DNA from: Gammaproteobacteria bacterium
GTDB taxonomy: Bacteria > Pseudomonadota > Gammaproteobacteria > DAOVJZ01
DNA: 64,000 nucleotides
Reading direction: 5' to 3'
NCBI GenBank assembly: GCA_029882995.1
Contig: JAOUJV010000001.1
Span: 11,668-75,667, forward strand
Below, piece after piece: positions 1 to 44,793 of this stretch. Within the stretch, counting starts at the first letter, position 1. The number at the start of each line of letters is the position of its first letter. The translations under genes and the position numbers were made by a program. The notes beneath the pieces are model-generated. The model was not told the DNA's origin. It saw only the letters and a program-made list of their open reading frames with translations, and ran no database searches.

Positions 1-162
1 AATCAGTCTTATCCCCCGTTCGTCCTGAGTTTTATCGAAGGACGGACGGGTATCTCATCCAGTTAACACTTGTCAGGAAATAAATACCCGTCATTCCGGC
101 TTATGAACCGGAATCTCGCACAGATTTCTTTGTTGTGCCAATTAAAAACAGGAATCTTATAA

Positions 163-217
163 CTTAAAATCCCTCGGTGGCAACACCGTGCCGGTTCAAA
201 TCCGGCTCTAGGCACCA
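163..217 (+). tRNA. tRNA-Leu(UAA)-like 3' portion (anticodon loop cttaaaa, long variable arm, T-arm, acceptor 3' strand, CCA); the matching 5' half is not in the window
   Basis: Sequence cttaaaatccctcggtggcaacaccgtgccggttcaaatccggctctaggcacca has a TAA anticodon loop, a class II variable stem-loop, a GGTTCAAATCC T-arm and CCA. The 5' acceptor strand (gcctaga) is not found in nt 1-162. Upstream nt 1-160 contain stable hairpins. Confidence 0.5.
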
Positions 218-423
218 TTTAAAACCAATGAGTTACGATTGGTTTTTCAATTCTAAATATCCCCTAATAAGCACTAAAAATTTCTATGTAGGCCTATAGT
301 AGTCAGGTAGAATAAAAAATATCTTGCTTTGTCATATTCTCTATATACACCCTTTATTTATGGTAATCTCAATTAGAATTTAATAAACCACACTCATTCT
401 GTTTTTAAAGCAAGATTTTATAT

Positions 424-3309: not shown

Positions 3310-3311
3310 AT

Positions 3312-3758
3312 ATGAATATACTTGTTGTTGAAGATGATTCGTTTAAATTTTCAAAAATAGAGACTCTTATTGAAAACACTTTGGGTAAAGTGAAAATAAC
3401 AAGGTTCGATAATATTCATGACACTGTTATTTATTTCGAGTCCAACATCCCGGACAAAATAATTTTGGATATGTCACTACCTAGTCATGCAGCCAAAGTG
3501 GGCGAGGGAAGCCCCTTGTCAATGCCTGCTGGAGGGATTGAAATTATACTTGAGTTAAAAAGTCTAAACATGATAGATATACCGATTCTAATACTAACCC
3601 AATACCCTGAAATTGAAATTGAAAATGAATACTATTCTATAGACGAGTCTGGGATTGAAATTAAAAATATTTACGGCATAAATAATCTGGCCGTTGTTCT
3701 TTATGAGAATGATTCATCTGACTGGAAGGATGAAGCTGTTGATTTTTTGAGGTTATAA
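3312..3758 (+). CDS. Stand-alone receiver (REC) domain protein; Detocs DtcB-like buffer
   Basis: 148 aa. N-terminus ILVVEDD and phospho-acceptor context ILDMSLP are typical of CheY-like receivers. There is no output domain. Confidence 0.6.
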   Translation: MNILVVEDDSFKFSKIETLIENTLGKVKITRFDNIHDTVIYFESNIPDKIILDMSLPSHAAKVGEGSPLSMPAGGIEIILELKSLNMIDIPILILTQYPEIEIENEYYSIDESGIEIKNIYGINNLAVVLYENDSSDWKDEAVDFLRL

Positions 3759-4928
3759 ATGAATATTTTATTAATTGAAGATCAAGAAAATAAAATCACT
3801 CTGGTTGAAGAGTTGATACGTGACAATGTTGAAGGCGATCAGTGTGTAATAATAAAAGCGAAATGTTTGGAGCAAGCGAGAAGAGAGATAATAGGAAAAT
3901 CCTTTGATCTTATTATTTTTGATATCTACCTCCCTTTGACGCCCGAGACTAACTCTGAAGTTGTTGATATATCGTTAGACATTATTAACGAATTTTCACA
4001 GAGCGCCAATAACTACCAAGCTGAAACTATAGCAATAACACAATACGATATTGAAGATATCGACAATATGGCCCTTTTTAATCAAGCAGGAGTTCCTGTT
4101 GTCCATTTTTCAGAGGAAGATGAAAAATGGAAAGACCCCCTTAGATTAAAGATAAAAAAAATCACTGATAGAGTGAAGTATGATTTTTTAATTTTTTGCG
4201 CTTTAAGCAAAGAGCGTTTAGCATTTTCAAATACAAATGCAGAAATGGGAGTGTTGAGAACAATGTATGGCCTTAACTGCCAAGATATAAAAATTGGAGG
4301 CTGCAATGGATTATGTATCACTCCGAACAATATGGGTCTCATTAATATGGCTATTTCAGCCTCAAAAGCAATAGAACACTTTCAACCAAAGATCGTTTCC
4401 ATGAGCGGAATTTGTGCCGGAGTTGAAGGAGAGGCAAATTTATTGGACGTAATCATTGGTGATCTTTGCTGGGAATATCAGACAGGAAAATTCAAAGATA
4501 ATGAATTTAAGCAAGAACCATATCAATCACCGATTGACGGCCGTATTAAAGTAGAGCTTGAGCAACTATGTGAGTCTGCTGAGATGCTGAACAATATTAA
4601 GAGAGGACTTTTTGAAACGGAGTTAAAAGACTCCAAGGTGTTTCTAGGTCCAATATCATCTGGTTCCGCCGTAATAGCCGATGCGAAAAAGATGGCAGAA
4701 ATAGGATTGCAACATCGAAAAATGGCCGGCCTTGAAATGGAAATGTATTCTTTATATGAGGCAGCAAGACAATCATTGTGTAGGCCTTTGTATTTTGGTG
4801 CTAAGACTGTTGTCGATTTAGGTAATACTATAAAAGGGGACACCCTTCATTCTACAGGTTCAACCCTTTCTGCAAGGCTAGTAACACATTATTTAGAATC
4901 TAAGTTGCCTGTTTTAAATATGGATTAA
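3759..4928 (+). CDS. Receiver domain fused to PNP_UDP_1 (purine nucleoside phosphorylase / MTA-nucleosidase-like) domain; Detocs DtcC-like effector
   Basis: 389 aa. N-terminus has ILLIEDQ ... DLIIFDIYLP (REC). The C-terminal half has GICAGVEGEANLLDVIIGD and AGLEMEMYSLYEAA, resembling the Pfs/PNP catalytic (v)EME motif. The start codon abuts the previous stop (taa-atg). Confidence 0.6.
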   Translation: MNILLIEDQENKITLVEELIRDNVEGDQCVIIKAKCLEQARREIIGKSFDLIIFDIYLPLTPETNSEVVDISLDIINEFSQSANNYQAETIAITQYDIEDIDNMALFNQAGVPVVHFSEEDEKWKDPLRLKIKKITDRVKYDFLIFCALSKERLAFSNTNAEMGVLRTMYGLNCQDIKIGGCNGLCITPNNMGLINMAISASKAIEHFQPKIVSMSGICAGVEGEANLLDVIIGDLCWEYQTGKFKDNEFKQEPYQSPIDGRIKVELEQLCESAEMLNNIKRGLFETELKDSKVFLGPISSGSAVIADAKKMAEIGLQHRKMAGLEMEMYSLYEAARQSLCRPLYFGAKTVVDLGNTIKGDTLHSTGSTLSARLVTHYLESKLPVLNMD

Positions 4929-16941: not shown

Positions 16942-17076
16942 CAGTTTTAGGGGGATTGTATTTTGTTATAAAACAGTGCCTTTTCCAGTGTCACAGGACT
17001 TTGGTGAGGCACATACCATTGAAATAGAATCGTTGAAACGGTCAAAATGGTATTAACCATCATGAGGAAATGGAAA

Positions 17077-18660
17077 ATGAAAAAACTATTAACTGGGATA
17101 TCAACGATTATTACGACAAGCGTTTTAATCACAGGGGTGGCAACTGCTGCAAAATTACAGCCGGTACCAACGCTATCTAAGGCGGAAATGGAAAAATCAT
17201 CGGCAATCTATTTTGATCGCTGTTCTGGTTGTCATGGTGTATTAAGAGGTGGTGCAACAGGCCCTGATATCACACCAGAAAAAACTCGCAAGAAAAAGCT
17301 GAAATCGCTGGAAAGAATTCTGTATGAAGGTACTGATGGTGGTATGCCGGGTTGGGGTAAAGATGGCTATATAACTAAAGCCGAAACCAAAATGTTAGCA
17401 AAATATTTGCAGATTAAACCACCCATTCCACCCGAATGGGATATGAAAAAAACCATGGCTTCCTGGAAAGTCCATGTTCCAGTCAGTAAACGCCCTACCA
17501 AAGCACCTAATACAAACTGGCAGAATTATTTTGGTGTGGTTCAGCGTGATGCCGGATTAGTCACTATTGTTGATGGCGATACCAAGGAAAAAATCGTTAC
17601 CTTAAAATCAGGCTTTGCTACTCATATTTTGAGGTCATCTTCAACAGGTCGTTATATGTATGCAATTGGCCGTGATGGTAAAGCCAGCATGATGGATATG
17701 TGGGCAACCCCTCCTAATCTTGTTGCTGAAGTTAGAACTGGTATTGATGCGCGTTCTATTGACACAAGTAAATATAAAGGCTTCGAGGACAAGTATGTAA
17801 TTGTAGGTAACTACTGGCCTTCTCATTATATGATCCTGAAAGGTGACACACTGGAACCTATCAAGATTGTGGGCACTTCCGGTTATACACATGACACAAA
17901 TGAGTACCGTTTAGAATCACGTGTTGCTGCTATCGTAGCTTCACATCATGCACCTGAGTGGCTTCTTAACCTGAAAGAACTGGGTATAGTGATGCTGGTC
18001 GATTACAGTAAGGTTGACCATGGCACTGTGACTGAAACCATGATTGATGCTGAGCGTGCCTTGCATGATGGTGGTTGGGATTCAACCAAGCGTTATTTTC
18101 TGGCAGCTGCGAACATGCGTGATACTATTTCAGTTATTGATACTGTAGAACGCAAGCTGGTTAAAAATATCAAGGTAGGCACCAAGCCACATCCTGGTCG
18201 TGGTGCAAACTGGATTGACCCTGAATTTGGCCGTGTTTGGGCAACCGTTCATCTTGGTGAAGGACTGGTTTCTATTATAAGCACCGACCCTTCAAAGAAA
18301 TATGCCTGGACGGTAGTAAGAGAGTGGGAACTGGATGGGAACTCACTATTTATTAAAACCCACGATAACAGTGAGTGGGTATATTGTGATAATACTATTA
18401 ACAAGGAAAAGAGTAAGACGCTGACCATCTTCAATAAGAACAATCCAGATGCCAAGCCAAAAGAAATCACCTTTGAGAAAAATGTTGTGCATATGGAATA
18501 TAACAAGGCAGGTGATGAAGTATGGGTTTCTCTTTGGGACGCAGAGGGTGAAGTTGTTGTGATTGATGATAAAACTCTTAATATCAAAAAGAGAATTAAA
18601 GGGCTTGATTCACCAACTGGTAAATTCAATGTCTATAATACAACGCATGATATTTACTAG
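17077..18660 (+). CDS. nirS: Cytochrome cd1 nitrite reductase family protein (NirS/NirN-like: c-heme domain + d1 beta-propeller)
   Basis: Signal peptide MKKLLTGIST..., heme-c site CSGCHGVLRGGATGPD, ~527 aa. GAGGA RBS before the 17077 ATG. Confidence 0.7.
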   Translation: MKKLLTGISTIITTSVLITGVATAAKLQPVPTLSKAEMEKSSAIYFDRCSGCHGVLRGGATGPDITPEKTRKKKLKSLERILYEGTDGGMPGWGKDGYITKAETKMLAKYLQIKPPIPPEWDMKKTMASWKVHVPVSKRPTKAPNTNWQNYFGVVQRDAGLVTIVDGDTKEKIVTLKSGFATHILRSSSTGRYMYAIGRDGKASMMDMWATPPNLVAEVRTGIDARSIDTSKYKGFEDKYVIVGNYWPSHYMILKGDTLEPIKIVGTSGYTHDTNEYRLESRVAAIVASHHAPEWLLNLKELGIVMLVDYSKVDHGTVTETMIDAERALHDGGWDSTKRYFLAAANMRDTISVIDTVERKLVKNIKVGTKPHPGRGANWIDPEFGRVWATVHLGEGLVSIISTDPSKKYAWTVVREWELDGNSLFIKTHDNSEWVYCDNTINKEKSKTLTIFNKNNPDAKPKEITFEKNVVHMEYNKAGDEVWVSLWDAEGEVVVIDDKTLNIKKRIKGLDSPTGKFNVYNTTHDIY

Positions 18661-19194: not shown

Positions 19195-19231
19195 CCTGTC
19201 CTGATTATTTGTCAGGACAGGTTTTATTTTT
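19195..19231. terminator. Bidirectional terminator hairpin between convergent genes
   Basis: cctgtcctgattatttgtcaggacagg flanked by T-runs on both strands. Confidence 0.55.
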
Positions 19232-19871
19232 GAATCAACCCCTGTTCCACAGCAAAGACTGCCGCTTCAACACGCGAATGCATATTCAGTTTTCTTAAAA
19301 TGGCCTTAACATGAAGTTTAACTGTGCCATCCGAAATACCGAGGTTGCGTGCAATAATCTTGTTGCTGTGACCTTCAGCCAGCTGCCCAAGAATTTCTGT
19401 TTCACGTGGCGTTAAGTCAGAAAGGGGAGAATCAATAACCGGTTCTGATTCAGGCGAGGGGCCTCTGATGACTTTCGCCATTATGCTGGCCAACTCTGGC
19501 GCGACCACCATTCCTCCCTGTTCAATCTCACGCAGTGCCTTGACCAGATCGTCTGGTTCCATATCTTTTAGCAGATAACCTTGTGCACCGCTTTTCAGGC
19601 AGTTGATTAAATCCTGTTCCTCTATGCTGGTGGTGAGCATGGCAATAGGCATGGTTAATCCGTTTTCACGTAAGGTTTTCAGTGCAGATAAACCATCCAT
19701 GTCTGGCATACGTAAATCCAGCAGGATGATTTCCGGCCCAAGTTCTTTGGCCAAATCAATTCCTTCGCTAGCGCGGCTGACCGAGGCAACAACCGTGATC
19801 CCACGTCTTTCCAGCAATGTTTCCAGTCCGGCGCGGAAAAGGGCGTGATCATCAACAAGTAAAATACGCAT
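19224..19871 (-). CDS. narL: NarL/FixJ-family response regulator (REC + LuxR HTH)
   Basis: MRILLVDDHALFRAGL receiver; C-terminal LTPRETEILGQLAEGHSNKIIARNLGISDGTVKLHV. Confidence 0.8.
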   Translation of the reverse strand: MRILLVDDHALFRAGLETLLERRGITVVASVSRASEGIDLAKELGPEIILLDLRMPDMDGLSALKTLRENGLTMPIAMLTTSIEEQDLINCLKSGAQGYLLKDMEPDDLVKALREIEQGGMVVAPELASIMAKVIRGPSPESEPVIDSPLSDLTPRETEILGQLAEGHSNKIIARNLGISDGTVKLHVKAILRKLNMHSRVEAAVFAVEQGLIQK

Positions 19872-19894
19872 TAATACAAATTTCCTTTCTTCTG

Positions 19895-21502
19895 TTATTC
19901 CGGATAATTAAATGACAATATGACCTGCGTGCCTTCACCGGGCTCGCTTTCAATAGTCAATGTTGCCTTGATACGTTGTGCGCGTTCCTGCATCACAGAT
20001 TGACCAATATGATGACCTCCAGATGAAAGTGATGTTTCTTCCTCTACAACGCCGACACCATCATCTTCAATCAAAATACGATACTGACCTTTGCCATTAC
20101 AGTGAAGCATAATGCGGGCAGTGTGAGCCTGACTGTGTTTTTTAATATTGGCCAATGATTCCTGAATAATACGTAATATCTGCACTTCATAATCAGGTGG
20201 TAAATCTATATCACGACAATCTTTATGCAAGAACACCTTTATGTCTGTTTGTTTTTCAAACTGACTGACAATTTCCTCAAGTGCCGGCACAAGACCGCGC
20301 TCATCCATTCGAATACGGAAGTGGGACATGAGTTCACGCAATTCTTTGTTGGCATGCTCAAGTCCATTTTCGATTTTTTCAATTTCTTCAAGTGCCATTT
20401 TATTATCTACTTGCTGGAGTGTCATATCGAGCATGCGCACCTGAAAGCGTAAGCTGGCAAAGGTTTGCGCCAGTGAATCATGTAGTTCGTTTGCCAGCAT
20501 GGCGCGTTCCTGCATGATTGAAAGACGCTGTGTTTCATGGTCAAGTCGTGATTTTTCGATTGCCAGCCCCAGATGTCGACCCAGACCGGTTAAGAGTTCC
20601 TGAATATCTTTATCGTTGGCGCTGGAATCTGACTCAACAAATAATTTACAAATGCCGACGTTTTTGTCGTGATGCTGAAGTGGTACTGCAATCATGCGCA
20701 GTAACTTTCCTTTATGCAGGGGTTGCGCAATATTGACGGGATAATTTTTCAGTTTTGTATGGCTGAGGATTTCACCTTCTGAAATCTGGTTACCTATCAT
20801 ACAGGCTTCGGAACTGATTAACTGGAATTTTTCGACAATGTCCTTTTCCAGCCCCTTGCTGGCGAGCAGTTTCAGTTTTCCTTCCGGTGTCAGTAATCGA
20901 ATACTGCCAGCGCGCGCAGACACAATATCCATTAACGTATCAAGCGTTCTTTCAAGCAGGTCATTCAGATCTCGGGATACATTTAATCTGGCTGCGACAT
21001 CATATAACACTTCCAGCGATCGTGTTTTTTGTGCCAGATTGCTGGTTTGCATGGCAACCATTTCATCTACATTATAAACAAGTGCGCTGTATTCCTTGCC
21101 GAAACGATTGAGTTCATCAATCAGATCCCACAGATGGCCTTTCTCATCCTGATCAATTTGTGCAAAGAACTCACCACCATGCATGCTGTGCGCCCATCTT
21201 TGAATGTCACGCAACGGGTGCAATAGATATTTGTATATACGATAGATAATAAGTGCGGTGATACCGAGCAAGCCTATGGTTGCTGTCATTAACAGCGGTA
21301 TGAATATCTCTGTACTGTTATTGTAAAAAACCTGCAGTGAGGCAATGGTGATTACCAGTAACAATAGTGAGAATACGATTAACGGTTGTGCCAGACGTGA
21401 TTTGACTATCCAGTCGTGAATAATATTTCTGGCATCACTGTTTTTTTGCCAGGCATTGACCTGAATTTCAGAATTTACTGGCTTTCCATCGACTGAGGGC
21501 AT
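19895..21502 (-). CDS. narX: NarX/NarQ-like nitrate/nitrite sensor histidine kinase (HisKA_3 + HATPase)
   Basis: Two N-terminal TM helices and H-box ANELHDSLAQTFASLRF. The ATPase domain carries GxGxG boxes. Adjacent to narL. Confidence 0.75.
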   Translation of the reverse strand: MPSVDGKPVNSEIQVNAWQKNSDARNIIHDWIVKSRLAQPLIVFSLLLLVITIASLQVFYNNSTEIFIPLLMTATIGLLGITALIIYRIYKYLLHPLRDIQRWAHSMHGGEFFAQIDQDEKGHLWDLIDELNRFGKEYSALVYNVDEMVAMQTSNLAQKTRSLEVLYDVAARLNVSRDLNDLLERTLDTLMDIVSARAGSIRLLTPEGKLKLLASKGLEKDIVEKFQLISSEACMIGNQISEGEILSHTKLKNYPVNIAQPLHKGKLLRMIAVPLQHHDKNVGICKLFVESDSSANDKDIQELLTGLGRHLGLAIEKSRLDHETQRLSIMQERAMLANELHDSLAQTFASLRFQVRMLDMTLQQVDNKMALEEIEKIENGLEHANKELRELMSHFRIRMDERGLVPALEEIVSQFEKQTDIKVFLHKDCRDIDLPPDYEVQILRIIQESLANIKKHSQAHTARIMLHCNGKGQYRILIEDDGVGVVEEETSLSSGGHHIGQSVMQERAQRIKATLTIESEPGEGTQVILSFNYPE

Positions 21503-30253: not shown

Positions 30254-30589
30254 TTATACGCAACCTGTTGGCTTTGGAAGGCCAGCGTACTTACATGCTT
30301 GCTTCGCAGGGCCGTATGGGAACAGTTCGTACAGGTACTTGCTGTTACCTTTATCTGGACCCAGTTTCTTGCCAATTGCCTTGGTCAGAACGCGAACCGC
30401 AGGAGCAATTTGATATTCTTCATAATATTCACGCAGGAAATTAATAACTTCCATATGGTTATCGGTCAGCTCACAGTCATCCAGCTTGGCCATTGCTTCA
30501 CCAATTTCCATAGTCCAATCAGCACGGTTTTCCAGATAACCTTCTTCATCTACTGCAATACTTTTACCGCCAACTTCAATAGTAGCCAT
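30254..30589 (-). CDS. dsrC: DsrC, sulfur-carrier substrate of DsrAB/DsrK
   Basis: 111 aa ending [13 protein letters not shown] with both conserved C-terminal cysteines. Confidence 0.92.
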   Translation of the reverse strand: MATIEVGGKSIAVDEEGYLENRADWTMEIGEAMAKLDDCELTDNHMEVINFLREYYEEYQIAPAVRVLTKAIGKKLGPDKGNSKYLYELFPYGPAKQACKYAGLPKPTGCV

Positions 30590-32928: not shown

Positions 32929-34245
32929 TTAGCCAGCCTTGCGAGCTTTCCACTTTTCAGCTTCAGCATCCCAATCGTCCATACGGACATAAGAACTCTG
33001 ACGTGCACTGCTAATCATGTTTGGATCCGGCTCAATACCGATACCTTCCAGGAAGTTAACCAGACCAATACGCTCAATTGTTTCACCAGTACGTTCGTGC
33101 TCAAGCGCATTTTCCGCCCAGAAATCAATGATTGTTTCAGCTAGTTCTTTCAGTGCTTCATAATCATCATCAGATTCCAGCTTCATGAATGGAACAAGAA
33201 CTGTACCCATAGTGTCACCAATCTTCAGGGTACGCTTACCACCCAGCAGAATTGTTACACCCTTGTCATCACCCGGGCTCAGTGCCTTGGTCATAACGTT
33301 GATACAATGCATGCAACGTACACAGTTACGGTTATCAACAGCCAGTGTGTCGTCATCATTCAATGACAATGCTTTAGTCGGGCAACGACTTACAACGTTA
33401 TCAACAATGTATTTACGACCCTTGTCAGCAACGTACTTCTTGACTTCTGCCTGATCAACTTTCATATCATCACGCCATGTACCAATTACAGCGAAGTCAG
33501 AACGCTGAATTGAGTTCATGCAGTCATTCGGGCAACCGGATACCTTGAACTTGAATTTGTATGGAAGAGCAGGGCGATGCATGTCATCCATAAAGTTATT
33601 AACAAGCAGACGGTGAATTTTTTGTTCGTCACAATTTGATTGTTCACAACGTGCTGCACCGATACAGGACATACCAGTACGTACGCATGGGCCGGCACCA
33701 CCAAGGTCCCAACCGTATTCGTTGATTTCATCAAAGAATGTTTGCACGTTCTGAGTAGTTGTACCGATAAACATAATGTTGCCTGTCTGTCCGTGGAATG
33801 CAATCAGACCAGAACCATGCTTATCCCATGAATCGGAAAGCTGGCGTAACATTTTTGTAGAGTAGTGATTACCAGCAGGTGGTTGCACACGAATAGTGTG
33901 GAACTCTTTAGATTCTGGGAACATAGGTTTGCCATCTGTACCCATCAATTCTGTAAAGCGAGGAATAATACCGCCGCCGTAACCAAAGACAGAAACCGTA
34001 CCACCTTTCCAGTAACCAAGACGTGTCTTGTAGGAATGCTCCAGCTGTCCAAGAAGGTCAACCATCATATTGCCAAACTTGTCTTGCATTGCCAGGCGCT
34101 TAAGACCTGTTACAAAGCTTGGCCAAGGACCTTTTTCCAGCTCATCCAGATTAGGAGTATTGTGGAATGGCTTGGATGATTTCTTCTCTGAAGGAAGATA
34201 AGTACAGTGCTTCTCAGGATTCTTTGGTTTGTCTGTTGCACTCAT
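32929..34245 (-). CDS. dsrA: Dissimilatory sulfite reductase alpha subunit (reverse, oxidative type)
   Basis: ATG at 34245 with an AGGAGG RBS. ~438 aa with siroheme-FeS binding Cys motifs. First gene of the operon. Confidence 0.92.
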   Translation of the reverse strand: MSATDKPKNPEKHCTYLPSEKKSSKPFHNTPNLDELEKGPWPSFVTGLKRLAMQDKFGNMMVDLLGQLEHSYKTRLGYWKGGTVSVFGYGGGIIPRFTELMGTDGKPMFPESKEFHTIRVQPPAGNHYSTKMLRQLSDSWDKHGSGLIAFHGQTGNIMFIGTTTQNVQTFFDEINEYGWDLGGAGPCVRTGMSCIGAARCEQSNCDEQKIHRLLVNNFMDDMHRPALPYKFKFKVSGCPNDCMNSIQRSDFAVIGTWRDDMKVDQAEVKKYVADKGRKYIVDNVVSRCPTKALSLNDDDTLAVDNRNCVRCMHCINVMTKALSPGDDKGVTILLGGKRTLKIGDTMGTVLVPFMKLESDDDYEALKELAETIIDFWAENALEHERTGETIERIGLVNFLEGIGIEPDPNMISSARQSSYVRMDDWDAEAEKWKARKAG

Positions 34246-34655
34246 TAGCAACTACCTCCTGTTTCAATTCGTTATTAACGTTATATAAACGGCGCGTACA
34301 GCACCCCATAAAAAAGCTGGGCGAATTGTAGTAAGTGTGTATGCCGCTTAGGAATTCATCTTTAGGGGTGTTTTACCTACCCCCTACCTATCCCAAACGG
34401 GATATAAGCAACCGATGTTTTGGAGTAATTGATTGATTTCAATAGTAATTACAGCAAAGCATCTTGAAGGCGCAGAATTATAGGTAAATCTTAAGGTTAT
34501 TGCACGCATTATTTCACTGGGTATTATGAGGGGGATTATATTGAGCAGGCAGTAATAATAGACGTCGTTCCAATTCCTGAGTAAAATGTTAGGGTATATT
34601 AGTTGTCATATATTTTAAGTGAGCTATATATGCCATTGTTAATAAAGAAGATATT

Positions 34656-35576
34656 ATGTCGCCAGTAGTCCAGATAAAGGTAGCGCCACCCCAAATTGAC
34701 AGCCCGTTTCATCTTGATAATGAAAAGGGGTATCAACTTTGGCGCGAGCAAAAACGGGATAACTACCCGTCAAAACCGGAAGAGTTGTTGGTTTCTGTCT
34801 CTGATCCCTTCCATATCACTGTCGACGAGCGAGGGCAGATTTTGTCGCTGTGCAGTAAGACAAATATCTCTATATATAGAACCTCACTTGAAGGAGTAGC
34901 TGATAAGGAGATCCCCAGAGCTATTGGCCATGCCTTTGGCCTGAATCGACTTGACCCGAATATGTTGGCAGATGATGATGGCATTACTTCATTGCAGGTT
35001 GTGGCCGGCAAGTCTGTGCGTGGCTACATACCGTATTCAAATAAACGGCTACTGTGGCATACCGATGGCTACTACAATACGACTGAACAGCAGATACGCT
35101 CTATTATTCTGCATTGTGTCACTCCGGCATCTGGTGATGGGGGCGAAAACGGGTTATTGGATCATGAAATGGCCTATATCCTGCTTCGAGACAGAAACCC
35201 CGACTTTATTCAGGCATTGATGGCACCGGATGCAATGACAATTCCGGCAAATGAGGAAGCGGCTGAACAGGACAGAAAATCAGTTACAGGCCCGGTGTTT
35301 TCGGTTGATTCTTCCGATGGCAGTCTCCATATGAGATATACAGCCCGTACCCGCAGTATCATATGGAAAGATAATGAAGTCACCCGTAAGGCAGTTGCGT
35401 TTTTAGGCGACTTACTCGAAAACGGCAATGACTATATATTCAATTACAAGTTGCGCGCAGGAGAAGGACTGATTTGTAACAATGTCCTGCACAAAAGAAC
35501 TGCATTTGAAAATACAGAAGGTGCAGATCGTTTGTTATATCGTGCGCGTTATTATGACCGTATCAAGCATACATAA
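34656..35576 (+). CDS. TauD/TfdA-family Fe(II)/2-oxoglutarate-dependent dioxygenase
   Basis: 306 aa with LLWHTDGYYN (HxD iron ligands) and a distal His. Divergent from dsrA. Confidence 0.6.
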   Translation: MSPVVQIKVAPPQIDSPFHLDNEKGYQLWREQKRDNYPSKPEELLVSVSDPFHITVDERGQILSLCSKTNISIYRTSLEGVADKEIPRAIGHAFGLNRLDPNMLADDDGITSLQVVAGKSVRGYIPYSNKRLLWHTDGYYNTTEQQIRSIILHCVTPASGDGGENGLLDHEMAYILLRDRNPDFIQALMAPDAMTIPANEEAAEQDRKSVTGPVFSVDSSDGSLHMRYTARTRSIIWKDNEVTRKAVAFLGDLLENGNDYIFNYKLRAGEGLICNNVLHKRTAFENTEGADRLLYRARYYDRIKHT

Positions 35577-35606: not shown

Positions 35607-35810
35607 ATGTTATACCTGAGCGAAATATTAATGCAGCACCATGAAATAAACACTTTTGAAGAATTGCTTAAGATCATTCCTGTGGTTGCAAAAGAAAAAG
35701 GCGAAATATTTATGCATATTGATGTTAAACCACAATATGCTGATGTGCCTGCAAACTGGGAAGATAAATTAGAGGGCGCGTTTGCTGGTGTTCACTCAGT
35801 TACAAATTAA
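35607..35810 (+). CDS. small hypothetical protein
   Basis: 67 aa ORF in the same orientation between the dioxygenase and downstream genes. Confidence 0.3.
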   Translation: MLYLSEILMQHHEINTFEELLKIIPVVAKEKGEIFMHIDVKPQYADVPANWEDKLEGAFAGVHSVTN

Positions 35811-35835: not shown

Positions 35836-36543
35836 ATGAAATATTTAAACAGAGATCAGTCAATCATCGATGCCGATGATGCCAGTGATGCCGAGGTGCC
35901 GACTGCACAATTTGAGGCAAAAGTGCAGGCATTACAAGAACAGATGCTTTCATTACCCCCGGGACATCATCCTATGGAGAAGGCAAGGTTACAACTTGAT
36001 ATTGGTCCTTTGCTGTTAGGTCTTGAAAAAAATGAAGACGCATGGGATATCGCAAGAGATGCATTTGATGTTTATGTTGAAAATGAATCATGGGAAGGTG
36101 CTGTTATTGCCTGTGAAATTATGTTTAATGCAGATCAGACAGATTCGCTCGCAGCGTTGGGGCAAGGGGTCTGGCTGGGAGTCACTTTCCCGGATGTTGA
36201 TCCTGAACTAACTGTTGTCATGCTTGATCACATTATTGATGAAACACCGGAAGATTCAGATGGGGCGGCACTGGCCGCTGCAACAGCGAGTTATATTGTC
36301 GATTTTCGTACAGAAGGGAAGAAGCATGAAGATCTGCAGTTTTTTACAAGCCAAAGACTGGCAGAAGTTGCTCGCCGTCACAGTAATGTGGAGACGCAGG
36401 AGTCTTTTGATAAATGGGTTGAAAAGCTCGAACTAAATGACCCTGAAAAATTTCTTGTGCGTTTAAGAAATGTAGTTGATGTATTGGTGCAGGAAAGCTG
36501 GTGGATTGATCGTGAAGCTATCTGGGCAAAGCTGCCGCACTAA
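35836..36543 (+). CDS. hypothetical acidic protein
   Basis: ATG at 35836 with an AGGA RBS (MKYLNRDQSIID). ~235 aa, no recognizable motif. Confidence 0.4.
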   Translation: MKYLNRDQSIIDADDASDAEVPTAQFEAKVQALQEQMLSLPPGHHPMEKARLQLDIGPLLLGLEKNEDAWDIARDAFDVYVENESWEGAVIACEIMFNADQTDSLAALGQGVWLGVTFPDVDPELTVVMLDHIIDETPEDSDGAALAAATASYIVDFRTEGKKHEDLQFFTSQRLAEVARRHSNVETQESFDKWVEKLELNDPEKFLVRLRNVVDVLVQESWWIDREAIWAKLPH

Positions 36544-36549
36544 CTGATT

Positions 36550-37242
36550 ATGTTTTGGCAAGAAGACGATGATAAGCCCGCAGTTGCGATAACAGATGAT
36601 ATCGTTGAACTGATTTTTAAAATCAAGTGTCAGGCGATACCGGTTGATCATGCATATGCATTATCCCAATCTGTGTTAAAGGTGCTGCCGTGGCTTGAAG
36701 AAGATGGCGCCGGCTTGCATACCATTCATGTTGTCACATCCGGTAACGGCTGGATGCGCCCTGAAAACCCTGATGAGTTGCTTTATCCGTCAAAACGTAC
36801 CCGGTTTTCCTTGCGTGTCCCCAAAGAAAGAATTTCAGATGCAGAAAAACTGGATGGTGTAGAGCTTGGTATTGCCGGCAACTCACTCATTGTCAGTGAA
36901 ATGAAAATCAAGCAAATTGAACCGCATGAAACCCTTTTTTCCCGCTATCTGATAACAGATGAAATTGAAGACGAAGAAAAATTTCTGGAAGGCATTTTTG
37001 AGCAGCTGAAGTCAATGGATATACATGTCCGTAAAATGATGTGTGGCAAGGAAAATAGAATCAAAACAAATGACGGAACAATCAAAACGCGCAGCATGAT
37101 GCTGGCAGATCTGGATGATGAGGCCTCCTTAAAGCTTCAGAAAACAGGTTTAGGTTCACTCCAACACATGGGTTGTGGCCTCTTTATCCCGCATAGAGGC
37201 ATCAAGGCGGTATCCTCAATACCTTCAAGTAGCGAAAAATAG
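36550..37242 (+). CDS. Hypothetical protein with Cas6-type glycine-rich loop (GLGSLQHMGCGLFIP) near C-terminus; possible orphan Cas6f/Csy4-like RNA endonuclease
   Basis: 230 aa. The C-terminal GhGxxxxxGhG followed by hydrophobic-Pro matches the Cas6 G-rich loop signature. The N-terminal beta-alpha region (IVELIFKIKCQ ... ALSQSVLKVL) resembles the Csy4 ferredoxin fold. No CRISPR array or other cas genes in the window. Confidence 0.35.
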   Translation: MFWQEDDDKPAVAITDDIVELIFKIKCQAIPVDHAYALSQSVLKVLPWLEEDGAGLHTIHVVTSGNGWMRPENPDELLYPSKRTRFSLRVPKERISDAEKLDGVELGIAGNSLIVSEMKIKQIEPHETLFSRYLITDEIEDEEKFLEGIFEQLKSMDIHVRKMMCGKENRIKTNDGTIKTRSMMLADLDDEASLKLQKTGLGSLQHMGCGLFIPHRGIKAVSSIPSSSEK

Positions 37243-37354
37243 AGGATTTTTTCTATAGGGTTGGGATAGAGACAAAAATTGGATTAGAATATGCGCCTGT
37301 TAAATCACTGGCAGTATTTGGAATTTGTAATCTGGAGTAACAAGAGAGGAAACA

Positions 37355-37693
37355 ATGGCTTACGAAATTGATGGTAAAACTATTGAAACAGACAAGAATG
37401 GCTATCTGGTTGAAATAACCGACTGGACTGAAAATGTTGCACAAGCAATTGCCAAGGAAGAAGGTATTGAGCTAACAGATAAACATTGGGATCTGATTAA
37501 TTTCTTACGTGATGAGTACATTAACAATGGCGGCAATCAGCCCAACACACGCAAGATTGTAAAAGCGATGTCTGATAAATGGGGAGAAAACCTGGCGCAG
37601 AAAGATATCTATGCACTTTTCCCTAAAGACCCGTCCAAGCAAGGTGGTCGTATCGGTGGCTTACCTGAAAGCCGCAGAAAGGGTGGTTACTAA
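37355..37693 (+). CDS. DsrC/TusE-family protein lacking both C-terminal cysteines
   Basis: 112 aa aligning to DsrC (…WDLINFLRDEY…) but ending GGLPESRRKGGY instead of PKPTGCV. Confidence 0.65.
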   Translation: MAYEIDGKTIETDKNGYLVEITDWTENVAQAIAKEEGIELTDKHWDLINFLRDEYINNGGNQPNTRKIVKAMSDKWGENLAQKDIYALFPKDPSKQGGRIGGLPESRRKGGY

Positions 37694-37705
37694 TCACTTT
37701 ATATA

Positions 37706-37735
37706 AAAGGGCTACATTAGTAGCCCTTTGTTTTT
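37706..37735 (+). terminator. Rho-independent terminator (aagggctac atta gtagccctt + T-run)
   Basis: Perfect hairpin plus tgtttttt after the stop at 37693. Confidence 0.5.
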
Positions 37736-37750
37736 TGGAATTTCCTAAGA

Positions 37751-38605
37751 ATGTCATATACATCACTTGTTAGCACCGATGTGCTGGCGGATCATCTTTC
37801 TGATCCTGACTGGATCGTTTTTGATTGTCGATTTACCCTGACCGCACCTGATTCCGGATATGAACAATATCTGCAAGAACATATTGATGGTGCACGCTAT
37901 GCACATCTGGATAATGATCTTTCATCACCCATTGCAGAATTAACGGGTCGCCATCCATTGCCGGACAAGAATAAATTCGTGCAATGGTTAAGAAATAACG
38001 GTGTAAACAATAACTCACAAGTTGTGGTCTATGATGAAAGTTTTGGTGCTGTGGCTGGTCGTTTATGGTGGTTATTAAAATGGGCAGGACATGATGCGGT
38101 TGCACTACTGGATGGCAGTTATCCCAAATGGCGTCGTGAAGGGCACAAGACAAGTCATGATCTCCCTGTGATTACTGAATCTGATTTTAAAGCTGATTTC
38201 AAAGATGAAATGATTGCAAGTTCTGACGAGGTCCATGAGTTTGTAAAAGGTAATAAACAAGCTGTCCTTATTGATGCGCGTGCAGAAGAACGTTTTAGTG
38301 GTGAAATCGAACTGCTGGACAAGGTGGCCGGGCATATCCCTGGGGCTATCAACTTTATGTATGAAGATAATCTCGATATGGGAGGGAATCTTCTTCCTGC
38401 CGATGAATTAAAAGAACAGTTTGAAGGTTTAATGAGCGGTGTTAAACCTGAACAAGTTATCCATATGTGTGGTTCCGGAGTGACAGCTTGTCATAATATG
38501 ATCGCAATGGAAGCTGCCGGCTTATATGGCAGTAAACTTTATATCGGATCATGGAGTGAATGGATAACTGCTCCTGATCGCCCTGTTGCTACGGGTGATG
38601 AATAG
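37751..38605 (+). CDS. sseA: Tandem-rhodanese thiosulfate/3-mercaptopyruvate sulfurtransferase (SseA-like)
   Basis: 284 aa with two rhodanese domains and the active-site loop CGSGVTA. Confidence 0.8.
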   Translation: MSYTSLVSTDVLADHLSDPDWIVFDCRFTLTAPDSGYEQYLQEHIDGARYAHLDNDLSSPIAELTGRHPLPDKNKFVQWLRNNGVNNNSQVVVYDESFGAVAGRLWWLLKWAGHDAVALLDGSYPKWRREGHKTSHDLPVITESDFKADFKDEMIASSDEVHEFVKGNKQAVLIDARAEERFSGEIELLDKVAGHIPGAINFMYEDNLDMGGNLLPADELKEQFEGLMSGVKPEQVIHMCGSGVTACHNMIAMEAAGLYGSKLYIGSWSEWITAPDRPVATGDE

Positions 38606-41920: not shown

Positions 41921-42592
41921 ATGCTCGTTAAAATTCCATCCGTTTTGAACGAATCACAACTTTCAAGAATTCAGGGCATATTATCCAATGCCAGTTTTGT
42001 CGATGGTAAATTGTCTGCCGGAATGGCGGCACAACGTGTTAAAAACAATGAAGAGATTGATGTGCGATCTCGTGAAGTCGAAATGTTAAATGAGATTGTC
42101 ATGAATAGCCTTGTTTCACATCCTTTGTATAAAGCAGCTGCCATGCCACTCAGGGTGGCTGCGCCATATTACGCGCGCTATCAACATGGAAAATACTATG
42201 GTGATCATATTGATGATCCGATCATGTTTGCCGGTTCTCCTTATCGCTCTGATGTATCAACAACTGTATTTTTGACTGACCCTGCTGATTATGAAGGAGG
42301 GGAGCTTGTTGTTAGAACCACATTCGGCGATACCGAAGTAAAATTACCTGCAGGTCATGCCGTTGTTTATCCTTCAGCCAGTATTCATCATGTTAATGAA
42401 GTGACAAAAGGTGAGCGCATTGTTGCCGTCACCTGGGCGCAAAGCATGGTCAGAGATCCGGCAAAGCGGGAAATACTGTTTGATCTTTATCATGCGCGTG
42501 AAAAGATGCTTGTTGAAATGGCAGGAAAGGAAGAGACCGATCAGATTGACCGGTCGTATGTTAATCTGGTCAGAATGTGGTCGGAGTTATGA
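41921..42592 (+). CDS. PKHD-type Fe(II)/2-oxoglutarate hydroxylase (PiuC/YbiX family)
   Basis: 223 aa with HIDD...HHV iron ligands and a double-stranded beta-helix fold signature. Confidence 0.65.
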   Translation: MLVKIPSVLNESQLSRIQGILSNASFVDGKLSAGMAAQRVKNNEEIDVRSREVEMLNEIVMNSLVSHPLYKAAAMPLRVAAPYYARYQHGKYYGDHIDDPIMFAGSPYRSDVSTTVFLTDPADYEGGELVVRTTFGDTEVKLPAGHAVVYPSASIHHVNEVTKGERIVAVTWAQSMVRDPAKREILFDLYHAREKMLVEMAGKEETDQIDRSYVNLVRMWSEL

Positions 42593-43024
42593 CATAGCGT
42601 CTGCTTTTTTGTACCACTCCTGTGCCTTTTCTGCACTTTGTTCAACTCCCTGACCTTGTTCATACATCATACCCAATGTCATGGCAGAACCGGCCAGACC
42701 TTGTTCAGCCGCCTTTTCAAACCATTCAGCTGCTTTTGATTCATCTTTTGCAATACATTCACCATGAAGGTACATGAAACCAAGCCCATGCTGGGCAAGT
42801 GCATGACCGGCTCCGGCGGCCTTTTGCATATACTCAAGTGCACGTGTTTCGTCTTTTACTAATCCAAGTCCATTTTGAAACATAATGGCCATTCGATGCA
42901 TGGCATCGGGGTGTCCATCCTGTGCATATGGGGAAAGCAGTTGTTTGGCACGTGAAAATTCCTTGGCTTCAAATGCGGCCATCCCGCTTGCAAGATCCAT
43001 ATCCAGTCCTGACATATCACGCAT
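42587..43024 (-). CDS. Sel1-repeat (TPR-like) protein
   Basis: 145 aa with several Sel1 repeats (A.G...A...LG.MY..G.GV..D...A..W..KAA). Confidence 0.7.
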   Translation of the reverse strand: MRDMSGLDMDLASGMAAFEAKEFSRAKQLLSPYAQDGHPDAMHRMAIMFQNGLGLVKDETRALEYMQKAAGAGHALAQHGLGFMYLHGECIAKDESKAAEWFEKAAEQGLAGSAMTLGMMYEQGQGVEQSAEKAQEWYKKADAMS

Positions 43025-43749: not shown

Positions 43750-44793
43750 CTACAGATATATCTTTGCAATATATTCCTCAATAGGTTCCACAGCGTTAGT
43801 ATTATGCTGTTTAAATAGCGCAAGCATATTGTTTGCTACCTGATACCAGTGTTCTTCTCCTGTTTTGCAAACAGTTTCCAGTGTGGCCAGTTTTCCACTC
43901 GATAGCCACTCCTGATAGCCCTTGATGAGTTGTGGAAACAGCAGCTTTCTCAGCCCGGTCATGTTGGAAAAATAAAAATGTAATGATGCCTGATTTTGAG
44001 TTTCGATCAGCTCAGGTAGTGTGGAAATACAATCTGCCAGATGATCACGCACAGCACGCGCCTTGAATTCAGCTTTTGTACACGAAAGAGTGGCCAGCAT
44101 TTGCTCCCATTCGTCTCCCAGTAATTTACCTGCACGCGCTTCACCAATTTCATGCAAGATGGTGTTTTCCGTCTCATTATCAACAAATGCGTTTAAGAGT
44201 GCCTCCATATCACCATGATGCGGATAACATTCAATGACCTGCGCCATTGGCACATCTGTACGTTTATTCCATTTCCATTCTTCTATCTTTTCCCATAAGA
44301 ACCGCTTTAACGATTCGCGGCTAATGAAAATAGTCTGGTTCAAAAATGTCGCTGGCGGCGCAACCAGATCACGTGCATATTCGAATTGCGAGATCAAAAT
44401 AGAAATATTTTCCCGCACCTCATGTTTGAGAAGTTTACCCAGAGAAAAATGCGGTTTTGAAAAGATACCACGTCCACTGTTGTAGATATAACCATGTGGT
44501 AGCAGTTTTTCATTTATCCCTTGTGTATCAAACGGGTCAAATGATTCATTGTCAATCACAAGCTGGCTATAGGCTTCATTTTCAAGTGGTTCCCATGATT
44601 GTTCACGATGCACCATCCATGAGCCAACATCATCACGCGGGATTTTTCCGGAAAGAGGGATTTTTTGTTCCCAGCGATAATATTCGCGCATTTTGAGTAA
44701 AAAAGTACACATGGAATAATTGCCCGCATATTGTGCATCTGAAATAGCACAATTATGCTGAACTGTTTTGACCAACTCTTGCAGATACTGCAT
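43750..44793 (-). CDS. hypothetical protein
   Basis: 347 aa, no recognizable motif. Confidence 0.4.
   Translation of the reverse strand: MQYLQELVKTVQHNCAISDAQYAGNYSMCTFLLKMREYYRWEQKIPLSGKIPRDDVGSWMVHREQSWEPLENEAYSQLVIDNESFDPFDTQGINEKLLPHGYIYNSGRGIFSKPHFSLGKLLKHEVRENISILISQFEYARDLVAPPATFLNQTIFISRESLKRFLWEKIEEWKWNKRTDVPMAQVIECYPHHGDMEALLNAFVDNETENTILHEIGEARAGKLLGDEWEQMLATLSCTKAEFKARAVRDHLADCISTLPELIETQNQASLHFYFSNMTGLRKLLFPQLIKGYQEWLSSGKLATLETVCKTGEEHWYQVANNMLALFKQHNTNAVEPIEEYIAKIYL

Follow-up and report, generated by a model that had tools for sequence, protein, structure and literature searches.

Functional DsrC is recognized by a penultimate cysteine (CysA), by the spacing of its two cysteines (CysB-X10-CysA) and, in DiSCo, by the C-terminal motif AGLPKPTG(x)CA/V. 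DsrC-like proteins without these cysteines have been named RspA ('regulatory sulfur-related protein'), and a regulatory role has been proposed for them. The group was reportedly defined by Venceslau et al. in 2014. DsrD of sulfate reducers, a small helix-turn-helix (HTH) protein long suspected to be a DNA-binding regulator, was shown to be an allosteric activator of DsrAB. Here, we describe a cysteine-free DsrC paralog, labelled DsrCL throughout, that is encoded at positions 37355-37693 of the plus strand in a 64,000-nucleotide stretch of gammaproteobacterial DNA (contig JAOUJV010000001.1, assembly GCA_029882995.1); the whole of this stretch is referred to as the window. DsrCL belongs to a module that is well defined, widespread and testable, and its role is probably that of a regulator or adaptor, not of a sulfur carrier.

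The closest described loci come from isolates. For Methylovirgula thiovorans HY1, PMC9371685 calls MHY1_00075, a DsrC-like protein without CysA, a probable RspA; its gene is three genes beyond the 'TauD/DsrQ' gene MHY1_00078, which abuts the DsrAB genes (MHY1_00079-80), and DsrQ is speculated there to release sulfite from sulfonates. The layout of MHY1_00075, TauD/DsrQ and dsrAB is the same as at the DsrCL locus. In Sulfurifustis variabilis and Sulfuricaulis limicola, SVA_1949 and SCL_1279, both listed as 'dsrC' copies, lie exactly five genes from dsrA. These isolate genes, listed as extra dsrC copies or as RspA, are likely orthologs of DsrCL; the DsrCL-type gene has thus been seen before, and the same tentative label was given to it.

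A DsrC-family protein without cysteines

The DsrCL open reading frame (ORF) starts with ATG and encodes 112 residues, with the tail GLPESRRKGGY and the C-terminal end ...QGGRIGGLPESRRKGGY. Direct reading of the sequence places a Shine-Dalgarno-like GAGAGG at 37344-37349 (plus strand), 5 nt 5' of the ATG, and homologous loci carry purine-rich GGAG or GGGG boxes at the equivalent place. Membership in the DsrC superfamily follows from the matches to Pfam PF04358 (E = 1.5e-34, 119 bits against a cut-off of 24.9) and to TIGR03342 (102 bits against a cut-off of 53.5). There is not a single cysteine in the protein. The window also encodes a canonical DsrC with both cysteines (30254-30589, minus strand); DsrCL is 41% identical to it, with G98 aligned to CysB, G111 aligned to CysA, and a two-residue RR insertion in the arm. 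The penultimate position is therefore held by a glycine, and the CysB-X10-CysA arrangement is lost in residue as well as in spacing, which the insertion shifts. From the DiSCo motif, the DsrCL tail GGLPESRRKGGY keeps GLP alone. Assignment to TusE fails on the missing cysteine and on the NF008562 equivalog model, where DsrCL scores 98 bits against a cut-off of 191; when the DsrCL profile was compared with the PDB, DsrC structures (1e-26) were far nearer than the TusE-type structure (4e-9).

An AlphaFold2 model of DsrCL (predicted local distance difference test, pLDDT, 87.5) displays a confident globular core with strands at residues 2-5 and 8-12 and five helices, followed by a low-confidence tail in which pLDDT drops from 74 to 44 and which is predicted to be flexible. 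The top eight Foldseek matches of this model in the PDB are all DsrC-family structures with template modelling (TM) scores of 0.72-0.85, led by Allochromatium vinosum DsrC. The model and these matches reproduce the elements of the DsrC fold, that is, an N-terminal β-hairpin, a helical core with an HTH-like motif and a flexible C-terminal arm. Across DsrC and DsrCL, 24 alignment columns are invariant in both, the whole hinge LFP..P.KQ....GLP included. Specific to DsrCL are the invariant polar residues N61, Q62, N64 and T65 at the start of the second HTH-like helix, where NQPNT stands in place of the hydrophobic IAPAV of DsrC. DsrCL is acidic (isoelectric point, pI, 5.2), as are the Cas6-like, TPR-like and small proteins encoded with it.

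Taken together, DsrCL is a DsrC-family protein that keeps the globular core, the hinge and the flexible arm, and in which both sulfur-carrying cysteines have been replaced by glycine. The canonical DsrC of the window is probably the parent of this paralog. Devoid of thiols, DsrCL is incapable of the cysteine persulfide and trisulfide chemistry of DsrC or TusE. A first-pass annotation of the locus had described a DsrC/TusE paralog that lacks either catalytic cysteine, aligns with DsrC through its HTH-like core and cannot act as a cysteine-based sulfur carrier; the family matches, the glycine substitutions and the structural comparison bear out this description in each respect. That annotation had also raised the possibility of a sequencing error that hides a cysteine-bearing C-terminal extension. 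This is excluded: 119 of the 120 best homologs have the same stop codon and tail, and read-through of the TAA would add SLYIKGLH*, again without cysteine.

Conservation of the C-terminal arm

The 120 best database homologs of DsrCL are 72-100% identical to it, and all but one (119/120) are exactly 112 residues long. Their tails are all near-identical, with RIAGLPESRRKGGY present in 92 of the 120, and GLPESRRKGGY is nearly invariant in approximately 80 genomic loci as well. A scan of one genome per species recovered relatives in 403 genomes, most of them from gammaproteobacterial sulfur oxidizers (Acidiferrobacterales, Thiohalomonadaceae, Ectothiorhodospiraceae, Granulosicoccaceae, Sulfurifustaceae, Sulfuriflexus and Thiohalophilus). 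Across 68 coding sequences, the eleven residues of the tail show little or no variation, whereas their codons draw on every synonymous family; the four glycine codons, the two serine codon families, and CGN as well as AGA are all represented in the tail. The median ratio of nonsynonymous to synonymous substitution (dN/dS) over the same sequences is 0.14, with dS saturated. DsrCL is under strong purifying selection, the arm above all. Identity among the loci is 71% for DsrCL, about 80% for DsrA, DsrB and DsrC, and 45-57% for the operon partners, values that are bounded below by the selection of the loci for similarity to DsrCL.

Searching 1.8 billion cluster representatives delineated a wider clade defined by the terminus ...RKGGY-COOH, with the variants ESRRKGGY, QSTRKGGY, ESMRKGGY and KPYGKGGY. 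Other DsrC-like clades without cysteines fall outside it and have unrelated tails (for example, GLPMPTGGP, GLPRPHGTP and GLMRTRGEH). No variation of the terminal tyrosine was seen among the members compared. The tail is also unchanged in loci devoid of the TauD-like, tetratricopeptide repeat (TPR)-like or rhodanese genes that neighbour DsrCL in the window, and these three are thus not obligatory partners. The relatives found in a phage collection are TusE-like only, none with the RKGGY tail.

Two further observations concern the relatives of DsrCL. Among its closest relatives in the representative library are proteins with two to five tandem DsrC-like domains (P0361, 541 residues; P0364-P0371 and P0377, 220-354 residues), the tails of which mostly contain one cysteine or none. 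In addition, contigs labelled Bacteroidota (L034) and Candidatus Methylomirabilis (L058) carry gammaproteobacterial-type dsrAB, with 81-84% DsrA/DsrB identity, and the DsrCL operon; both are probably mis-binned in their metagenome-assembled genomes.

A solo Cas6-like protein in an operon divergent from dsrAB

Gene neighbours were counted over non-redundant loci (denominators 73, 70 and 61), and surveys for cas and other genes covered 84 loci; the loci comprise only about 8 kb on each side of DsrCL. In the window, the minus strand carries a complete oxidative-type dsrABEFHCMKLJOPN operon together with an IscA-like dsrR. Its first gene, dsrA (32929-34245, minus strand; TIGR02064, 600 bits), has GGAGG 9 nt upstream of the ATG at 34245, and starts about 3.1 kb from DsrCL, which is on the opposite strand. 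DsrCL is the terminal gene of an operon with the order [TauD/DsrQ-like]-small acidic protein-[TPR-like]-solo Cas6-like-DsrCL, brackets denoting the variable members. This operon diverges from dsrA in 55 of 61 loci, and a divergent tail variant, QSTRKGGY, has the same TauD-small-Cas6-DsrCL arrangement. Placement near the dsr control region, as the first-pass annotation had it, thus stands, and the DsrCL operon shows this divergence from dsrAB across several hundred species of sulfur oxidizers, most of them Gammaproteobacteria. Directly 3' of DsrCL, at 37706-37737 (plus strand), is an intrinsic terminator-like hairpin with a 10-bp stem, five G-C pairs and a T-run; a terminator of this strength makes DsrCL the last gene of its transcription unit and places the downstream rhodanese gene in a separate one.

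The constant upstream partner is a 230-residue Cas6/Cmx6-like protein, here Cas6L (36550-37242, plus strand), which directly precedes DsrCL in 69 of 73 loci. It matches PF09559 (E = 7e-60) and scores 130 bits with TIGR02807, above the cut-off of 98.85 for Cas6/Cmx6, and it aligns over its full length with the type I-B Cas6 of PDB 8fcj_B (E = 5e-10). Relative to the Cmx6 proteins linked to clustered regularly interspaced short palindromic repeats (CRISPR), Cas6L is only 25-27% identical, although PxDH, R83, R89, R132 and the glycine-rich loop are common to both; these shared motifs point to retained nucleic-acid binding. Compared with Cmx6 of type I-MYXAN, Cas6L is acidic (median pI 6.0) and contains an extra nine-residue NGWMRPxxP insert. 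Cyanobacterial Cmx6 resides in a full cas6-cas3-cas8-cas7-cas5-cas4/1-cas2 locus with an array, whereas Cas6L has none of these beside it: neither a CRISPR array nor cas1, cas2, cas3, cas4, cas5, cas7 or cas8 (the cas4-1 fusion included) was found in the window or in the 84 loci. For this reason, Cas6L is a solo, non-CRISPR Cas6. A CRISPR or defence-island reading of the operon is ruled out by the same lack of arrays and of other cas genes, together with a PADLOC match that comprises the Cas6 only. Genes of the Cas6L type are labelled CRISPR-associated by NCBI and JGI, and they are conserved beside dsr genes in dozens of lineages.

The second constant partner is a small acidic protein of an uncharacterised family, recognized from its conserved alignment (35607-35810, plus strand; 67 residues), which occurs in 64 of 70 loci at a length of 58-67 residues and with the consensus MLYLSE...IDVKPxYPDTPxNWEDRLEGAF; it has no match in Pfam, NCBIfam or the PDB. 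While dsr proximity and rhodanese adjacency had been recognized in the first-pass annotation, Cas6L and this small protein, the constant members of the neighbourhood, had been missed.

In nine loci (L014, L025, L032, L043, L048, L063, L075, L077 and L082), several of them labelled Acidiferrobacterales or Acidiferrobacteraceae, a TTTGTATCATTCGCG-like box lies just 5' of DsrCL, an indication that the gene has an internal promoter in these loci. An Rfam scan of the window returned tRNAs only.

A conserved motif in the shared spacer

Within the spacer that separates dsrA from the DsrCL operon is a conserved motif, TATCCCAAACGGGATA (34389-34404), which lies 144 nt upstream of the dsrA ATG and has no second match in the window. 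In its general form, CCY-N4-GGGATAT, it was matched 38 times in 1.17 Mb of loci plus the window, against 4.2 matches expected, and 36 of the 38 matches are at the orthologous spacer position and in a single orientation. The motif can be read as 7-2-7 and is partly palindromic; a G-run lies about 30 nt upstream of it, in the region 34357-34410. From these sequence properties, the spacer motif looks like a DNA operator, and we treat it as a candidate one. The repeat of a real type I-MYXAN Cmx6 locus (GTGATCAACGCCTTTCGGCATCAAAGGTTAAAGTAG) has only the short-stem, tetraloop style in common with it.

Outside the spacer, the only other copy of CCY-N4-GGGATAT (CCCGAATGGGATAT) in the sequence searched is located at 17431-17444, inside the ORF at 17047-18660, and may be there by chance. 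At 19224-21502 (minus strand), directly after dsrN-dsrR and beside the cd1 nitrite reductase genes, the window encodes a GAF/HisKA_3 histidine kinase and a NarL/LuxR-type response regulator, the latter at 19224-19871, between dsrR and nirS. This pair could link the control of dsr and of denitrification and could be a candidate binder of the motif; no linkage of the regulator to dsr emerged in other lineages.

Variable and peripheral neighbours

The first gene of the operon encodes a TauD-family Fe(II)/2-oxoglutarate oxygenase (34656-35576, plus strand; PF02668, E = 3e-19) in which the HxD...H triad region is conserved. It is present in 45 of 61 loci and has no sequence match in the PDB. Between the small acidic protein and Cas6L is an acidic, TPR-like helical-repeat protein (35836-36543, plus strand; 235 residues counted from M19 of the listed ORF), present in 49 of 61 loci. 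Its 2725 homologs are all labelled 'hypothetical', no Pfam or NCBIfam model covers it, and its profile detects nothing significant in the PDB. The AlphaFold2 model is all-helical (pLDDT 90.6), and Foldseek returns weak, generic matches to KLC-TPR and Rap structures at E >= 5e-3. The idea that the TPR-like or the TauD-like protein is a required receptor or modifier of the tail is weakened by the invariance of the tail in loci without them.

Downstream of the terminator is an SseA/3-mercaptopyruvate-sulfurtransferase-like tandem rhodanese (37751-38605, plus strand; E. coli SseA 1urh, E = 1.9e-35) with the active-site motif CGSGVTA. The first-pass annotation had stressed this adjacency, which is real in the window and variable elsewhere: the rhodanese gene comes directly after DsrCL in 29 of 73 loci, and in L086 it comes after a divergent member with the RKGGY tail. 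Given this frequency, the intervening terminator and the unchanged tail in loci without it, the rhodanese is ruled out as an obligate partner.

A PKHD-type 2-oxoglutarate-Fe(II) oxygenase (41921-42592), a DUF6866 protein (43750-44793) and a Sel1-repeat protein (42587-43024) recur near the DsrCL operon elsewhere. The PKHD-type oxygenase is present in 48 of 84 loci, and this recurrence may reflect synteny only or a wider oxygen-related neighbourhood. Positions 1-4000 of the window have a G+C fraction of 0.33-0.34 compared with about 0.43 elsewhere and hold a 961-residue ORF (424-3309) without a Pfam match, followed by two more ORFs; this stretch may be foreign DNA.

Discussion

We tentatively favour a reading in which DsrCL has a non-catalytic role as regulator or adaptor, binding nucleic acid and acting together with Cas6L in dsr control. 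The HTH-like face bearing N61, Q62, N64 and T65 would contact DNA or RNA, and the former sulfur arm would have become a basic Arg/Lys-Gly-Gly-Tyr contact arm, to which the AT-rich half of the motif (ATATA) may be suited. DsrCL and Cas6L would act on the control region shared by dsrA and the operon, at the CCY-N4-GGGATAT site, or on its transcripts, and would thereby tune dsr expression; this would amount to the RspA idea in a form specific to this clade. We base this reading on the fold and family of DsrCL, the loss of cysteines combined with the RR insertion, the invariant tail and the conservation of the operon, and also on the divergent layout, the position- and orientation-specific spacer motif, the Cas6L motifs and the polar HTH residues. 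The basic, glycine-rich, Tyr-ended arm and the published RspA proposal fit as well. A regulatory role had already been suggested by the first-pass annotation, and the divergent operon, the spacer motif and the polar HTH residues fit that idea and do not prove it. DsrC of A. vinosum is itself said to bind a dsr promoter, a result ascribed to a 2010 study by Grimm.

Several properties of the module weigh against a role in nucleic-acid-based control. The acidity of DsrCL (pI 5.2) and of Cas6L (median pI 6.0) is unusual for nucleic-acid binders. DsrCL evolves nearly as slowly as DsrA, DsrB and DsrC, while its operon partners change much faster; a transcription factor is not typically this conserved, and a simple one does not typically have a flexible tail under extreme selection. 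DsrC-fold proteins are not known to be dimers, although the motif is partly palindromic. The strict motif is present in only about half of the loci; in RNAalifold it gives an invariant 3-bp stem only, with no covariation, which makes a DNA site likelier than an RNA structure. No conserved hairpin was found in the spacer between Cas6L and DsrCL, which ranges from 31 to 280 nt across loci, and in a few loci the DsrCL gene stands alone, without adjacent Cas6L. Finally, the case of DsrD shows how misleading an HTH can be when it occurs in a small Dsr protein.

The slow evolution of DsrCL, at a rate like that of the Dsr core and not of the operon partners, would be accounted for by a protein-level modulator, the main rival reading, which we nevertheless consider rather unlikely. 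Here, DsrCL would dock on DsrAB, DsrK or DsrEFH through its DsrC body and hinge, insert an inert arm, and gate sulfur oxidation either as a DsrD-like allosteric effector or as a competitive mimic of DsrC. The DsrC arm is the element that docks into DsrK, and it also docks into DsrAB (PDB 2v4j); in keeping with such docking, the 24 columns shared with DsrC include the entire hinge, the predicted flexibility of the DsrCL arm is like that of the DsrC arm, and linkage to dsrAB is tight. DsrD, once a suspected regulator and now an allosteric DsrAB activator, would be the analogous precedent. However, the DsrCL arm is two residues longer and carries RRK, for which a poor fit is expected in pockets built for the neutral PKPTGCV tip, and the sulfite channel of DsrAB is lined with basic residues. 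The interaction of DsrEFH with DsrC depends on Cys111 of DsrC, and the co-conserved Cas6-like and small proteins are left unexplained by a modulator. Docking also features in an improbable explanation, a maturation or cofactor factor, whereby the body would sit in the cleft of DsrAB and the RRKGGY arm would bind siroheme or siroheme amide, aiding its insertion or holding apo-DsrAB open; Arg and Lys would engage the carboxylates, the terminal Tyr would be an iron ligand, and the remaining operon products would help in assembly. With an invariant small molecule as ligand, the constancy of the tail whichever operon proteins are present would be explained, and the retained docking features and the dsrAB linkage would follow too; haem chaperones such as CcmE use flexible C-terminal tyrosine ligands. 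Yet the proposal is purely inferential: the Pfam and NCBIfam scans gave no signal of a haem- or siroheme-binding family, the dsr operon already contains dsrN and dsrR, and no obvious role falls to the Cas6-like protein.

The neighbouring enzymes inspire two further explanations. An organosulfonate or sulfite route built around the TauD/DsrQ-like oxygenase, with DsrCL as an accessory binding protein, is quite improbable; the oxygenase, its metal triad intact, opens the operon in 45 of 61 loci, the rhodanese neighbour recurs, and sulfonate breakdown is speculated upon in PMC9371685, but DsrCL and its tail persist unchanged without the TauD-like gene, which is thus not an obligatory partner, and DsrCL has no thiol for binding sulfite or sulfane sulfur. 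Very improbable is a C-terminal glycine thiocarboxylate carrier in the manner of ThiS, MoaD or ubiquitin, from which Tyr would be removed and GG activated, with sulfur delivered by the rhodanese. While ...RRKGG-Y does resemble ubiquitin-type ...RLRGG-X precursors, and the rhodanese gene is downstream in 29 of 73 loci and beside a distant RKGGY member, removable cap residues vary whereas the terminal Tyr is invariant, which argues against its being such a cap. Moreover, most loci lack the rhodanese and a terminator stands between it and DsrCL here, neither an E1-like adenylyltransferase nor a JAMM peptidase was found in the 84 loci, and the fold is that of DsrC, not β-grasp. That DsrCL is a decaying, non-functional dsrC duplicate or an assembly or sequencing artefact is scarcely credible, since nothing except the loss of catalytic residues speaks for it; it is refuted by the conservation data, namely 403 species genomes, a fixed length of 112 residues, a near-invariant tail, a dN/dS of about 0.14 with scrambled codons and a conserved operon.

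Beyond the regulator or adaptor role of DsrCL itself, we put forward, as a doubtful proposal, that DsrCL, Cas6L and the small acidic protein form an undescribed dsr-linked module, in which the arm would contact RNA, DNA or the siroheme pocket of DsrAB, and through which dissimilatory sulfur oxidation would be controlled post-transcriptionally or at the enzyme level in hundreds of species of sulfur oxidizers. Cas6 would here have been taken over for non-CRISPR work, and DsrC turned from a sulfur carrier into an adaptor.

Regulation of the reverse Dsr pathway outside Allochromatium is largely unknown, and no fewer than several hundred species of environmentally important sulfur oxidizers have the DsrCL operon tied to dsrAB, among them Acidiferrobacterales, Thiohalomonadaceae, Ectothiorhodospiraceae and Granulosicoccaceae. 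The automatic labels 'DsrC', 'TusE' and 'CRISPR-associated Cas6' inflate dsrC copy counts and give false CRISPR calls in metagenome surveys. Should the module prove regulatory, its defined protein set, cis motif and cultivable hosts would provide a concrete and testable way into dsr control. RNA binding by Cas6L at this locus would be a clear example of a Cas6 taken into core energy metabolism, and docking of DsrCL on DsrAB or DsrK would make DsrCL the counterpart of DsrD in the oxidative pathway.

Comparison with known systems

Among known systems, DsrCL is closest to oxidative-type DsrC; with A. vinosum DsrC (PDB 1YX3), for instance, it shares the fold (TM 0.82) and 42% identity. As in oxidative-type DsrC, the length, the hinge LFP..P.KQ....GLP, the flexible C-terminal arm and the position of the gene beside dsrAB are all retained. 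Unlike DsrC, DsrCL has glycines in place of both redox-active cysteines, an arm that is two residues longer, basic and Tyr-ended, no AGLPKPTGxC motif, and a separate, divergent operon shared with non-Dsr proteins. TusE belongs to the same superfamily, and many DsrCL orthologs are automatically labelled 'tRNA 2-thiouridine synthesizing protein E', but the tRNA 2-thiouridine sulfur relay in which TusE acts needs the penultimate cysteine that DsrCL does not have. From ThiS, MoaD and the ubiquitin-like proteins, DsrCL departs in fold (DsrC, not β-grasp) and in its C-terminus (GGY with an invariant Tyr), and the genes called around DsrCL in the 84 loci include no ThiF/MoeB-like protein, E1-like adenylyltransferase or JAMM peptidase.

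DsrD, whose role is that of a non-redox accessory, resembles DsrCL in being small, HTH-containing and genetically tied to dsrAB; it differs in its unrelated winged-helix fold, its length of 78 residues, its occurrence in reductive systems and the experimental demonstration of allosteric activation. Lacking both CysA and CysB, DsrCL falls within RspA, a loosely defined and uncharacterised group with which it shares DsrC-family membership without CysA, location in the dsr cluster and a presumed regulatory role. The literature searched contained nothing linking DsrC-like proteins with Cas6 or Cmx6, and no description of an invariant RKGGY arm as a clade hallmark, of solo Cas6-like and small-protein partners, or of the spacer motif. 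The RspA label was thus known before; what this locus adds to it is a clade marked by the RKGGY arm, the partnership with Cas6L and the small acidic protein, and the spacer motif.

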